DNA from: Escherichia phage P479
Strand: one strand, 5' to 3'
Sequence record: MW269952.1
Length of the DNA stretch: 64,000 nucleotides
A model generated the notes under the pieces. It did not search any database, was not told the DNA's origin, and saw nothing but the letters and a program-made list of their open reading frames with translations. The number at the start of each line of letters is the position of its first letter. Position 1 is the first letter of the stretch. This document shows, in pieces, positions 9,426 through 13,248 of this stretch. A program made the translations under genes and the position numbers.

Positions 9426-10454
9426 ATGTCATATATTGATAAAGAATTTGCAGTCAGAGCTTTATCGTATCAACCACGTTATAGAGAAGTCACCGGGAGC
9501 ACATTTAAAGCAAACTGTCGTTGCAAGGTTTGTGGGGACTCCCAGAAAGATTCACACAAGGCTCGATTCTGGGCGTATACTAATCCGGCTGATGGCGCGG
9601 TTTACGTGAAATGTTTTAACTGTGACTACTCCACGCATATAAGCAAATACATAAAAGAGTTTGAGCCTGATTTACACCGGGAATATATGGTTGAGAAGTA
9701 CAAGGAGAACGCCTTCGGGCGACAACGTAATGAAGTTGCAGAAGCTCCGAAAGAACCAGAAAAAACTCCGGTTATCGAACAGCTTGCTTTTTGTGAAAGA
9801 CTCGATACTTTACCAGAAGCACATCCGATAGTTAAGTATGTAAAAAGTCGATGTATTCCAAGCAATGTTTGGAACCGACTATGGTTTACAAACCAATGGC
9901 CTGCATTAGTTAACTCCGTTAATCCTGGGACGTATAAGAATGAAACGAATGAACCACGCTTGGTTATTCCTATCTTCAACGGCAAAAAAGAAATCGAATC
10001 TTTCCAAGGACGAGCTCTTCGCAAAGATGCACCACAAAAATATATCACAATCAAAGCTCACCCAGAAGCTTCCAAAGTCTATGGCGTAGACAAGATTGAT
10101 GAGCGTAAACGCGTATGGGTAATGGAAGGTCCGATTGATAGTTTGTTTATCCCTAACAGCATTGCGATAACTGGTGGAACATTGTCATTGGAAGCCGTTC
10201 CTTATCCAGAAACCAGAGTATGGGTAATGGACAACGAACCAAGACATCCGGATACGATTAAACGTATGAAGAAGCTCGTTGAAGCTGGCGAAGCTGTTAT
10301 GTTCTGGGACAATGCACCATGGCATACGAAAGACATAAATGAGATGGTTAAATCAGAAGGAGCAACCCCTGAACAAATCGAATCATATATGGCCGATAAC
10401 GTTGCTCAAGGATTGATGGCGAGAATGCGACTTTCGAAGTACGCAAAAGTTTAG
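9426..10454 (+). CDS. 61: gp61 DNA primase
   Basis: 342 aa (same as T4 gp61); zinc ribbon CRCKVCGD...CFNCDYS; TOPRIM-like EGPIDSL. Confidence 0.9.
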   Translation: MSYIDKEFAVRALSYQPRYREVTGSTFKANCRCKVCGDSQKDSHKARFWAYTNPADGAVYVKCFNCDYSTHISKYIKEFEPDLHREYMVEKYKENAFGRQRNEVAEAPKEPEKTPVIEQLAFCERLDTLPEAHPIVKYVKSRCIPSNVWNRLWFTNQWPALVNSVNPGTYKNETNEPRLVIPIFNGKKEIESFQGRALRKDAPQKYITIKAHPEASKVYGVDKIDERKRVWVMEGPIDSLFIPNSIAITGGTLSLEAVPYPETRVWVMDNEPRHPDTIKRMKKLVEAGEAVMFWDNAPWHTKDINEMVKSEGATPEQIESYMADNVAQGLMARMRLSKYAKV

Positions 10455-10651
10455 GAAGGGATTCCGGTAAAGTAACCGATGATGGAATGGATATGTTCCA
10501 TTGTGACCTGGAGTAAGTGTACCCCTTGTGTTGCAGCGATAGGCACAACCAGTAAGTTCCACAGGAAAACATCAAGAGCTAAAAAGCCCATGATGAGCTT
10601 CTTGTCTTTCTTACTGGTTAATTTCCAAATCTGATAGAATAATGTTCCCAT
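10451..10651 (-). CDS. small membrane protein, paralog A (66 aa)
   Basis: Minus-strand ORF; TM helix LWNLLVVPIAATQGVHLLQV; paralog of 10660..10857. Confidence 0.5.
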   Translation of the reverse strand: MGTLFYQIWKLTSKKDKKLIMGFLALDVFLWNLLVVPIAATQGVHLLQVTMEHIHSIIGYFTGIPS

Positions 10652-10659
10652 AGTTCCAC

Positions 10660-10857
10660 CTATATAAGGCCGATTAATGCCAGTGAAACATCTACAACTG
10701 ATTCGAGCGCGACGACTGGTAATATAACACCATGTGCCATTGCAACTGGAGCAACAATGAAGTTCCAGAGTAGAACTAAACAGAGTACCGAAAGGACCAG
10801 AATCGTTCGCTTACGACTGCCTTTGATGGCTTGAATTAGACTAGATAGTTTTAGCAT
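10660..10857 (-). CDS. small membrane protein, paralog B (65 aa)
   Basis: Minus-strand ORF; strong RBS GAAAGGGGGA; late-promoter-like CATAAATA upstream; TM helix LWNFIVAPVAMAHGVILPVV. Confidence 0.55.
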   Translation of the reverse strand: MLKLSSLIQAIKGSRKRTILVLSVLCLVLLWNFIVAPVAMAHGVILPVVALESVVDVSLALIGLI

Positions 10858-10873
10858 ACATCCCCCTTTCTTG

Positions 10874-10881
10874 TATTTATG
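10874..10881 (-). promoter_or_regulatory. late-promoter-like CATAAATA (minus-strand membrane protein pair)
   Basis: 7/8 match to TATAAATA 17 nt upstream of ATG at 10857; strong RBS follows. Confidence 0.4.
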
Positions 10882-10941
10882 CTTTAAACCAATACGATAT
10901 AATTAACATACAAACAACATGAATTGATAAGGAAAAATATA

Positions 10942-11457
10942 ATGGCTCATTTTAATGAATGTTCTCAACTGATTGCTGGTGTTGATAAAGCTCAGGGCGC
11001 TTATGATAATGCAATTTTTGAAGGCACTGACCCACTGCAAGTTATGCTTGATATGCAGAAATCATTGCAGGTTCGTCTGGCTAATGACCGTGATTATTGC
11101 TACCATCCAGATAAATTAGCGACTGCTGGTGATGTTGTTGCTTGGATGCGCGAACAAAAAGACTGCATTGACGATGAATTCCGTGAACTGATTACTTCAT
11201 TGGGTGAAATGTCTAAAGGTGAAAAAGATGCATCTGCTGTCTGGAAAAAATGGAAGGCTCGTTATACTGAAGCGCAAGCTAAACCAATTTCAGAAATGTC
11301 CCCAGAAGACCAGCTTGAAATTAAATTTGAATTAATTGATATCATGCATTTCGTATTCAATATGGCTATTGGTTTGAATATGTCTGCGGAAGAATTGTTC
11401 AAACTGTATTATCTGAAAAATGCCGAGAACTTTGCGAGACAGGACCGTGGCTATTAA
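10942..11457 (+). CDS. 56: gp56-like nucleoside triphosphate pyrophosphatase (dCTPase/dUTPase family)
   Basis: 172 aa from ATG at 10942 (track starts at upstream TTG); all-alpha MazG-like pattern; T4 gp56 is ~171 aa; position between 61 and soc. Confidence 0.7.
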   Translation: MAHFNECSQLIAGVDKAQGAYDNAIFEGTDPLQVMLDMQKSLQVRLANDRDYCYHPDKLATAGDVVAWMREQKDCIDDEFRELITSLGEMSKGEKDASAVWKKWKARYTEAQAKPISEMSPEDQLEIKFELIDIMHFVFNMAIGLNMSAEELFKLYYLKNAENFARQDRGY

Positions 11458-12103
11458 GGCAAGATTTCATAGGACGTATATAATTAAAGTTAAAACGCCG
11501 AAAGGCGTTTTTTGGTATGGTGGTAAACACGAAACCAATGTACTAGACCCATATAAAGACCGATATTCAGGCTCCGGAAAAATACTCTGGAACATATATA
11601 AAAAGTATGGAGTCAAATATCAAATTCGCTGGTTTGTTGGTCACCAGAATAGGGAAATGGCGTTTGAACATGAAAGATATCTAATATCATTATTAAATTC
11701 TAAACATGGTTCAAACTGTATTAATATTTTACCTGGTGGGCAGGGCGGAGGCGGATATGAATGGACTGATGAAATGAAGTTGGCCCAAACACTACGTTTA
11801 AATAAGCCCGAAACTAAAGCTAAAATGAAAAGCGCCCAATGTGTTGCTCAAAATCGCCCTGAACGCAAATCCAGACAATCAAAAGCAATGAGCGAGTTTT
11901 ATGCAAATGGTGGAAATAAAATCGTATCAGAAGCCACATCTAAAGCGCAAAGAACTGCAGCTCATTGGCATGAACCATTGAAAAGTGAAATCTATCAGAT
12001 TTGGCTTTCATTAGGTAAACCCGGTGGAGCTTCTGCTGTGGTTAAAGCACTTAAGGGAAAATACGAAACAACCCCCAGCGCACTTAAACTTTTAATATAT
12101 TAA
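11420..12103 (+). CDS. GIY-YIG homing endonuclease (Seg-like)
   Basis: YIIKVKTPKGVFWYGG ... YSGSGK resembles Seg proteins; start overlaps last 38 nt of gene 56. Confidence 0.65.
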   Translation: MPRTLRDRTVAIKARFHRTYIIKVKTPKGVFWYGGKHETNVLDPYKDRYSGSGKILWNIYKKYGVKYQIRWFVGHQNREMAFEHERYLISLLNSKHGSNCINILPGGQGGGGYEWTDEMKLAQTLRLNKPETKAKMKSAQCVAQNRPERKSRQSKAMSEFYANGGNKIVSEATSKAQRTAAHWHEPLKSEIYQIWLSLGKPGGASAVVKALKGKYETTPSALKLLIY

Positions 12104-12117
12104 TTTAGAGGCATTTA

Positions 12118-12345
12118 ATGAAAAATAAATTACGCTTGGTTATAGACGCAGAAATTGATGAAAACATAAATTATGATTTTCAGCAAGTCACAATTGAAAA
12201 TTTTAAATCATCTCTTATGCGCACTGGATATGAAGTCAAGGAACACGAAGGTGTATTGTCCTTTATCAAAGATGCGAAAGCAACTATTGACTTTAGCGTT
12301 AGTTTAAATGGGGTTGAAGAAAAAGAAACATTTAAAATGTATTGA
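12118..12345 (+). CDS. hypothetical protein (75 aa)
   Basis: ORF. Confidence 0.45.
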   Translation: MKNKLRLVIDAEIDENINYDFQQVTIENFKSSLMRTGYEVKEHEGVLSFIKDAKATIDFSVSLNGVEEKETFKMY

Positions 12346-12353
12346 TATAAATA
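12346..12353 (+). promoter_or_regulatory. late promoter TATAAATA (soc)
   Basis: Exact TATAAATA 32 nt upstream of soc ATG, then RBS AAAGGAG. Confidence 0.7.
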
Positions 12354-12384
12354 CACCTGTAATTAAACAACAAAGGAGTTAATT

Positions 12385-12618
12385 ATGGGTGGTTTCGTTA
12401 ATATCAAAACCTTTACGCATCCAGCTGGTGAAGGTAAAGAAGTTAAAGGTGTTGAAGTATCAGTTCCGTTTGAAATCTATTCGAACGAGCACCGTATTGC
12501 GGATGCACACTATCAGACTTTCCCTTCGGCCGTTGCAGCCTATACTACTGTAGTGACTGATGCAGCCGATTGGCGAACTAAGAACGCGGCGATGTTTACG
12601 CCTACCCCAGTAGTTTAA
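12385..12618 (+). CDS. soc: Soc small outer capsid protein
   Basis: 77 aa; VNIKTF and AHYQTFPS match T4 Soc; exact late promoter TATAAATA upstream; terminator after. Confidence 0.85.
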   Translation: MGGFVNIKTFTHPAGEGKEVKGVEVSVPFEIYSNEHRIADAHYQTFPSAVAAYTTVVTDAADWRTKNAAMFTPTPVV

Positions 12619-12623
12619 TTATA

Positions 12624-12647
12624 GGGAACCTTCGGGTTCCCTTTTTG
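12624..12647 (+). terminator. intrinsic terminator (after soc)
   Basis: GGGAACC-TTCG-GGTTCCC then TTTTT. Confidence 0.75.
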
Positions 12648-12649
12648 CT

Positions 12650-12690
12650 TTTAATAGAGATGGTATAATTATCTCAACTACAGAGGAGAA
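12650..12690 (+). promoter_or_regulatory. stem-loop with TATAAT in loop plus leader box
   Basis: AGAGATggtataattATCTC; box CAACTACAGAGGAG. Confidence 0.45.
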
Positions 12691-12694
12691 TACT

Positions 12695-12892
12695 ATGTTA
12701 AACCGTTGGATTAAACCAAACAAAACTTTAGACGAAGTTATTGCCCATGATGTACATTTTAAGTATGGTCTGGGTGCGTTTGATGAGGTTGTCGTACATT
12801 CATTCATGATGCACGATGATGATTCTTTAGAATTCAATATTGAAATCCGTTGTGATGATGGTAAAGTTGAATTTAAACGAGGTTTCCTATGA
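12695..12892 (+). CDS. hypothetical protein (65 aa)
   Basis: ORF after promoter/stem-loop cassette. Confidence 0.5.
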   Translation: MLNRWIKPNKTLDEVIAHDVHFKYGLGAFDEVVVHSFMMHDDDSLEFNIEIRCDDGKVEFKRGFL

Positions 12893-13248
12893 TTAGTTGG
12901 CTCAAGAATTTATTCAAGACCAAAGCAGGCGAAGGTGTGGTTCCTGTTAGCCTACCAGATGTCAAGCTAAGAGAATATGTTTACATGGGCGATGGTATGA
13001 TGGAAGAAGTTCGTCGCCGACCAGAAAAAGCCGGTAATGTCGGACCAGGTGCATTGCCATTGAATTCGAAAAAGTTAAAAGAGCATCTGGATTCAAGACG
13101 TTCTACGAGTCATGTTGATACTACACCACATATCGATACTACTTCGATTGTGGTTACTGCAGCTGCAGTTAGTTCGTGGACTGGTGATTCGTCTTATTCC
13201 TCCTATGATTCAGGAAGCTGTGATTCGTCTTCCAGCTCGTGTGATTAA
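12889..13248 (+). CDS. hypothetical protein with Ser-rich low-complexity C-terminus
   Basis: 119 aa; tail DSSYSSYDSGSCDSSSSSCD. Confidence 0.5.
   Translation: MISWLKNLFKTKAGEGVVPVSLPDVKLREYVYMGDGMMEEVRRRPEKAGNVGPGALPLNSKKLKEHLDSRRSTSHVDTTPHIDTTSIVVTAAAVSSWTGDSSYSSYDSGSCDSSSSSCD

Follow-up and report, generated by a model that had tools for sequence, protein, structure and literature searches.

The locus between gene 56 and soc of Escherichia phage P479 raises two questions, namely whether the open reading frame (ORF) that starts inside the end of gene 56 is a mobile endonuclease gene, and how such a gene would be expressed from within its neighbor. The window analyzed here is the whole stretch of 64,000 nucleotides (nt) of this phage (sequence record MW269952.1), whose first 25 kb are 94-95% identical to the Gaprivervirus phages TH41 and MN01. 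The phage is T4-like, and the ORF is very probably its segF orthologue, encoding a free-standing homing endonuclease with a divergent N-terminal GIY-YIG domain and a helical C-terminal half. The genes concerned are the following.

10942-11457, plus strand: gene 56 (dCTPase/dUTPase, 171 amino acids), from ATG 10942 to TAA 11455-11457; PHROG 173 at 6.2e-42 and Pfam dUTPase_2
11420-12103, plus strand: segF ORF in its longest form, from ATG 11420 to TAA 12101-12103; 227 amino acids
11447-12103, plus strand: segF orthologue read from its GTG start; 218 amino acids, 11-nt overlap with gene 56
12385-12618, plus strand: soc (small outer capsid protein), the conserved right flank; Pfam Soc at 1.2e-17 and PHROG 1715 at 3e-39

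The E-values of a tblastn search in 50,697 phage records confirmed that the ORF at 11420-12103 is real and not a chance ORF. SegF of VR7 and VR26 was matched with 92% protein identity (E 4e-132) and T4 SegF, whose gene was formerly named gene 69, with 62% identity over ORF residues 5-227 (E 2e-84). These alignments span 98-99% of the length, and every SegF match adjoins the dCTPase gene 56. The gene order 56-segF-soc on a single strand is shared by the annotated records of VR7, T4, AnYang, MY742, KMB20, Lion_ER11, and Cronus. Gene 56 is annotated as 56 in VR7 and T4 as well, and PHROG 173, to which it belongs by its match, is the nucleoside triphosphate pyrophosphohydrolase family. The ORF itself matched PHROG 314 'homing endonuclease' at 4e-30. 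Read from GTG 11447, it gives a protein with 100% identity to the 218-residue nr entry 'homing endonuclease [Escherichia phage P479]'; hence, segF of this Gaprivervirus is already known and annotated as a homing endonuclease gene. On the minus strand the 56-soc interval holds short ORFs of 43-49 amino acids only, and an Rfam scan of 10400-12900 yielded nothing beyond a sub-threshold chance match to a snoRNA. In T4, segF encodes an active free-standing GIY-YIG endonuclease, is inserted at soc/56 and has gene 56 as its target (PMC2988022). The Seg-like free-standing endonuclease proposed in the initial annotation was therefore borne out, the ORF being an orthologue of T4 segF by both position and sequence.

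The SegF family alignment (13 sequences) has a mean column identity of 70% and about 80 family-invariant residues, all of which are kept in the window SegF. The ratio of nonsynonymous to synonymous substitution rates (dN/dS) is 0.085 against VR7 at a dS of 0.50, and 0.17-0.24 against more distant orthologues. These low values indicate purifying selection on the protein, and the dS of 0.50 shows that the window and VR7 copies are not recent duplicates. Two regions of the protein were distinguished.

11465-11731, plus strand: N-terminal GIY-YIG-type nuclease domain, residues ~7-95, with the order beta-beta-alpha-beta-alpha
11762-12100, plus strand: C-terminal all-helical region, residues ~106-218, from AlphaFold2 helices and the family alignment

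The predicted SegF structure contains a three-stranded sheet with flanking helices, i.e. the beta-beta-alpha-beta-alpha core. Its predicted local distance difference test score (pLDDT) is 64.6, with low confidence at residues 41-46, and among the methods tried it was the predicted structure alone that gave a link to the I-TevI fold. The motif consists of T10-Y11-I12 and W23-Y24-G25-G26, of which Y11, Y24, and G26 are invariant in 13 of 13 sequences, and the 'GIY' tyrosine and the 'YIG' Tyr-x-Gly stand at the spacing of the GIY-YIG superfamily (10-13 residues apart). E76 and N93, also invariant, are the counterparts of the metal-binding E75 and N90 of I-TevI, and E76-x7-N84-S85-K86 mirrors E75-x7-N83-S84-K85 of that enzyme (aligned by eye against the verified I-TevI sequence). 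A GIY-YIG motif had been read from the ORF initially, and careful alignment did not dissolve it, as Y11, Y24-G25-G26, E76, and N93 all proved invariant. The C-terminal helical region is presumed to be the DNA-binding part, by analogy with GIY-YIG homing endonucleases, which are modular in build.

Several results weigh against the reading as an active GIY-YIG homing endonuclease. No residue of the family is a clear, invariant match to R27 of I-TevI. Residues 27-45 include no invariant arginine; either R or K is found at position 39, and K27, H28, and K45 vary little or not at all. Pfam, PF01541 included, gave no hit at E <= 10 with any of the 13 family sequences, the window protein among them. 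Searches of PDB sequences by phmmer and by hmmsearch with the family profile returned chance hits only (lipid-A-disaccharide synthase, glucoamylase), and hhalign of the family profile against the I-TevI catalytic domain reached a probability of 0.7% with the wrong region aligned. The start ATG of T4 and VR7 is GTG here and the last 5 residues of VR7 SegF are missing, so that function may be reduced or lost. Finally, the association between gene 56 allele class and endonuclease carriage described below comes from 15 phages which are phylogenetically non-independent.

The failure of all hidden Markov model and profile methods, the pLDDT value, and the invariant arginine that was not found would also suit a nuclease or DNA-binding protein of a non-GIY-YIG fold, whose likeness to I-TevI would then be an artefact of the model. 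We consider this extremely unlikely. The divergent GIY-YIG domain remains our preferred interpretation, and the lack of a clear invariant counterpart of the canonical arginine is probably the reason why Pfam-type curated models miss the SegF family.

The SegF-type N-terminal domain was also found in endonucleases of the phages RPN187 and Aeromonas phage 25 (BLASTP 2e-16 and 4e-21, respectively; 35% identity). The former (locus L009, 1198-1833) sits between genes 13 and 14, the latter (locus L010, 1168-1938) after nrdA. Neither served as a bridge to the GIY-YIG families, since both likewise lack a Pfam GIY-YIG hit, and the RPN187 endonuclease showed sub-threshold matches only, to NUMOD3 and to the I-TevI DNA-binding domain. 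Because the Pfam GIY-YIG model misses these two endonucleases too, a divergent SegF-type GIY-YIG sub-family seems to be systematically under-annotated.

The second difference from VR7 named above results from a GAA to TAA change, by which the window SegF stops 5 codons sooner and ends in ...LLIY. Its C-terminus is thus shorter by 5 residues than that of VR7 and of 11 of the 12 other family members, and all but one of the others continue past LLIY with (E/S/L)-F-R. Together with the loss of the start ATG and with a hairpin in the 5'-end of the gene that is under nucleotide-level selection in its own right (see below), this truncation would be expected of a decaying or inactive relic, kept only as its 5'-end provides a terminator or a 3' stabilizer of the gene 56 transcript. 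However, the ORF is intact across 218 codons, the dN/dS given above speaks for selection on the protein, the family-invariant residues are complete, and GTG is a legitimate start codon that is found in AnYang too, with an in-frame ATG 27 nt upstream. A relic is thus very unlikely.

Mobility of segF is supported by comparison of the 56-soc interval across relatives. Within Gaprivervirus and T4 relatives at least six forms of this interval were found:

Empty, 41 nt, with the late promoter right after the gene 56 stop: pEC-M719-6WT.2, and about ten further records as judged by match length
One small ORF: VR20, MN01, TH41
Two small ORFs: VR25, and T2 with homologous ORFs
segF alone: VR7, VR26, T4, and others
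segF and a 75-amino-acid ORF: the window only
Mob-like HNH endonuclease and a 77-amino-acid ORF: DK-13, and about 30 records including the Yersinia phages fPS-2 and PYPS2T

Full-length segF occurred in 61 phage records compared with 433 that matched the region. It is present in VR7, VR26, and members of at least four other genera, and absent from VR20, VR25, pEC-M719-6WT.2, T2, and also from TH41 and MN01, the closest genomes (~94-95% identical overall). The ORF is thus sporadic in the interval and not conserved in all relatives. The recombination hotspot that the initial annotation had suspected between 56 and soc is upheld by the segF-less closest relatives, by the number of interval contents, and by the mosaic structure of gene 56.

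At the same 56/soc site, DK-13 carries a Mob-like HNH endonuclease gene (locus L003, 1548-2381; 277 amino acids, PHROG 655 at 6e-30), copies of which, at >= 80% identity, occur in about 30 phage records. The annotation of fPS-2 places a terminator within this gene. A C-terminal DNA-binding module common to SegF and the DK-13 HNH enzyme was considered and rejected, as BLASTP gave an E-value of 0.2 over 12 residues. On the other side of gene 56, between it and the primase gene, two adjacent and mutually similar small hydrophobic ORFs of 66 and 65 amino acids lie on the minus strand (10451-10651 and 10660-10857). VR25 and MN01 have two such ORFs, while VR7, VR20, and DK-13 have one; this spacer is another copy-number-variable spot beside the segF locus.

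Homing would be expected to leave traces in the neighboring target gene. A table of mismatches per 30 nt and protein alignments delimited the following part of gene 56.

11062-11421, plus strand: center of gene 56 (codons ~41-160), 'class A' allele

The first ~120 nt of gene 56 are nearly identical to DK-13 and TH41, whereas its center resembles T4, VR7, and DK-13 more than it does TH41 or T2. Class A gp56 was present in all 9 endonuclease carriers examined (8 with segF, and DK-13 with the HNH gene), and class B in all 6 endonuclease-free phages (TH41, MN01, VR20, VR25, pEC-M719-6WT.2, and T2). This mosaic and its link to allele class fit co-conversion of a resistant allele together with the endonuclease, but are suggestive only, since carrier and non-carrier lineages are not independent. 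The class A center may accordingly be a co-converted, cleavage-resistant tract. According to Belle et al. (2002), SegF reportedly cuts T2 gene 56 preferentially. Exclusion of T2 gene 56 by SegF has been described (PMC2330249).

That SegF and the HNH enzyme share one entry point and the same gp56 class may hint that the same target region is exploited or protected.

Turning to expression, two T4-type promoter matches were found in 10400-12900, one upstream of gene 56 and one upstream of soc.

10880-10903, plus strand: middle-promoter-like sequence upstream of gene 56, MotA box TGCTTTA-N11-TATAAT (pattern match)
12346-12353, plus strand: late-promoter core TATAAATA for soc (pattern match), at the right edge of the variable cassette

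The former lies in the region that holds oriA in T4. The latter is conserved in position across all relatives; where the site is empty, it comes immediately after the stop codon of gene 56. This arrangement, with promoter matches before gene 56 and soc only, agrees with T4 segF, which is a promoter-less cassette relying on upstream promoters (PMC2988022). By analogy, the middle promoter upstream of gene 56 is presumed to be the source of the segF-carrying transcript.

The extent of the overlap with gene 56 depends on the start codon that is used. Upstream of the GTG start, the longest ORF opens with a further codon.

11420-11422, plus strand: upstream in-frame ATG, giving a 38-nt overlap, formed by the gp56 codons AAA AAT GCC (Lys-Asn-Ala)

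In T4, VR7, MY742, KMB20, Lion_ER11, and Cronus, the segF ATG is located 11 nt inside gene 56 (...ATGG[CA]TAT/CTAA). The homologous codon is GTG in the window (11447-11449) and, independently, in the Dhakavirus AnYang. For T4 segF, with its 11-bp overlap, it has been proposed that ribosomes re-initiate no farther than about seven codons from the stop of gene 56 (PMC2988022). GTG 11447, mutated from ATG, is favored with moderate confidence as the start of SegF because it is situated within this range and ATG 11420 is outside.

Translation from ATG 11420 would give 227 amino acids and has a lower yet appreciable probability. An ATG initiates more strongly than a GTG, and this one has an equivalent in 5 of 8 orthologous loci (window, AnYang, MY742, Lion_ER11, and Cronus), serves as the start in the annotations of AnYang, MY742, and Lion_ER11, and is the sole ATG on offer in the window and in AnYang. 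In contrast, T4, VR7, and KMB20 have no ATG at this position, the nine residues added by it are not conserved, and the codon is a by-product of the gp56 residues K-N-A, with a stop codon one codon upstream. Moreover, it precedes the gene 56 stop by 35 nt (~12 codons), which is beyond the seven-codon re-initiation window (PMC2988022), and the P479 database entry of 218 amino acids fits the GTG start. Given this entry, the 38-nt overlap stated in the initial annotation holds for the longest ORF, which is not necessarily the translated one; with the likely start at GTG 11447 the overlap shrinks to 11 nt.

Neither codon is preceded by a usable Shine-Dalgarno (SD) sequence. The best anti-SD duplex for ATG 11420 has +0.4 kcal/mol and no usable spacing, and that for GTG 11447 (AGGA) has -4.0 kcal/mol at a spacing of 1-2 nt, which is too short, compared with -5.8 to -8.2 kcal/mol and 5-7 nt for gene 56, the 75-amino-acid ORF, and soc. 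The earlier remark that the gene has no obvious ribosome binding site thus applies to either start.

The change from ATG to GTG also alters gene 56, as it makes the overlapping codon CAT/AAT into CGT (Arg) at the third-from-last residue (window 11445-11449). Arginine occupies this residue in 6 of 6 endonuclease-free gp56 proteins examined. The GTG in the 11-nt overlap is possibly a compromise between a host gene and a selfish gene. Another idea was that the gene 56 tail of the window (NAENFARQDRGY) was acquired as a patch from an allele without segF and marks a recombination junction. It was weakened because one A-to-G transition accounts for GTG; save for Arg/Asn at the third-from-last residue, this tail is also found in the segF-positive phages AnYang, KMB20, and Cronus.

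A further element that may limit segF expression lies inside its 5' coding region.

11492-11513, plus strand: terminator-like hairpin, AAAACGCC-GAAA-GGCGTTTT followed by TT

The hairpin is within the first 70 nt of the segF coding sequence, 35-54 nt past the gene 56 stop, and its codons read KTPKGVFW in the region of the GIY-YIG motif. The hairpin occupies these codons in every one of the 8 orthologues, and its sequence is identical in VR7. In Cronus (46% protein identity) stem and loop are different (AATGCTCC-TTCG-GGAGCATT) while the structure is kept. In the alignment of the 8 orthologues, 100% of cells are paired and 3 of 8 pairs are compensatory; the covariation score was reached by 0 of 500 shuffles. 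Among the seven closer orthologues, 3 of 35 four-fold sites with conserved amino acid are invariant and all 3 are in the stem, where the fourth four-fold site covaries with its partner. The calculated chance that 3 invariant sites all fall among the 4 stem sites is ~6e-4.

An intrinsic terminator in the 5' part of the coding sequence has been described for T4 segF and also for mobE, in which ~30% of transcripts stop (PMC2988022). The conserved hairpin looks like the terminator already reported for T4 segF. Alternatively, it might mainly act as a 3'-end stabilizer of processed gene 56 mRNA, as a ribosome-slowing site, or as an element at the DNA level. The T run is short once A-U pairs are counted as stem, Cronus has merely CTATTAT after the stem, and a terminator scan flagged the hairpin on the minus strand only. 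Furthermore, polarity on soc is no issue, as that gene is served by a late promoter of its own farther downstream. Nevertheless, such a role in place of termination appears unlikely: the GC-rich stem, the 4-nt loop, and six T (11508-11513) fit the pattern of T4 intrinsic terminators, and there is the precedent of the segF and mobE terminators of T4 (PMC2988022). Just after soc (12623-12642) there is a further hairpin, strong and terminator-like, which reads AGGGAACC-TTCG-GGTTCCCT and has a run of T behind it.

Taking the hairpin as a probable terminator, the overlap with gene 56, the lack of a usable SD sequence and of an internal promoter, and the hairpin together make up the weak-expression arrangement that had been ascribed to this gene, as described for T4 segF (PMC2988022). 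Overlap, weak initiation, absence of a promoter, internal hairpin, and patchy distribution are in fact already known as published features of T4 segF.

These data are compatible with the following scenario. In a mixed infection with a segF-less relative, SegF would make a double-strand break in gene 56 of that phage, as T4 SegF does; for the latter, action on T2 gene 56, site-specific cleavage, and super-Mendelian inheritance are known (PMC2330249, PMC2988022). Repair of the break would copy the donor segment of gene 56, segF, and the adjacent 75-amino-acid ORF into the recipient, resulting in intronless homing with co-conversion. Lacking a promoter of its own, segF would depend for its transcription on the middle promoter that precedes gene 56, part of the transcripts should stop at the conserved hairpin, and ribosomes finishing gene 56 would re-initiate on segF, most likely at GTG 11447 or alternatively at ATG 11420. 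For P479 we infer the catalytic activity and target site of SegF by orthology to the T4 enzyme, and likewise infer termination at the hairpin and the start used.

The cassette of the window differs from all other forms of the interval by an additional gene downstream of segF.

12118-12345, plus strand: 75-amino-acid ORFan, GC content 0.31, with an AGAGG SD sequence (-5.8 kcal/mol)

This ORF is part of a 229-nt segment which stands where VR7 has a 26-nt spacer before the late promoter of soc. No relative was found by tblastn in the phage records, and in 5.8 billion protein clusters it matched the identical P479 protein only. An exhaustive HMMER scan of 1.84 billion representatives returned just two weak hits, both to unrelated repetitive proteins and judged spurious, and a single-sequence AlphaFold model was uninformative (pLDDT 42). 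The ORF may be cargo that hitch-hikes with segF. More generally, one could tentatively picture the 56/soc junction as a place where endonucleases turn over and cargo is captured, with the hitch-hiking of this ORF and the gp56/segF overlap compromise as parts of the process; we regard this broader picture as rather doubtful.

The main use of our analysis lies in correct annotation, that is, in the probable start at GTG 11447, the hairpin, and the adjacent ORFan. As an example of intronless homing, SegF has textbook status, and the copy in the window is built alike. The locus exemplifies a throttled selfish nuclease gene, with no promoter, an internal terminator, and a start within the upstream gene, as well as the way in which selfish genes drag along neighboring sequence and create mosaic essential genes, and the re-use of one slot by different endonuclease families. 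With regard to phage engineering and therapy cocktails, the version of this region in a SegF carrier would be expected to prevail among the progeny when relatives lacking segF are co-infected.

Among known systems, I-TevI is the archetypal GIY-YIG homing endonuclease; its gene lies in an intron, and it cuts no more than ~25 bp from the insertion site. Its catalytic domain (PDB 1LN0, 1MK0) has no detectable sequence-profile similarity to SegF, the helix bearing R27 and H31 lacks a clear counterpart in SegF, and there is no relation between the C-terminal halves. MobE of T4 and the HNH gene product of DK-13 resemble SegF in being free-standing, in overlapping an upstream gene, and in residing in T4-like phages. 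In addition, the 5' coding region of mobE contains a terminator, and the DK-13 HNH gene shares with segF the 56/soc site, an ATG 11 nt inside gene 56, and the gp56 class. In contrast to SegF, MobE and Mob-like enzymes belong to the HNH and not the GIY-YIG type, and they show no significant similarity to the window protein (BLASTP E 0.2).

Much closer are the SegF proteins of VR7/VR26 and T4. The former are also from Gaprivervirus and share with the window 92% protein identity, the same site, and the identical hairpin sequence, but VR7 has an ATG start and a gp56 end of ...QDHGY in place of GTG and ...QDRGY, a SegF longer by 5 residues, and the 26-nt spacer where the window has the ORFan. T4 segF differs in its ATG start, in the 6-residue tail (LFRKEDV region) that is missing from the window protein ending in ...LLIY, and in having neither an in-frame ATG 27 nt upstream nor the extra 75-amino-acid ORF behind the gene. 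Nevertheless, the T4 and window proteins are 62% identical over the full length, and the two genes have the same 56-soc site and orientation, the same start position 11 nt inside gene 56, a GAAA-loop hairpin at the same codons, and the same gp56 allele class alongside.

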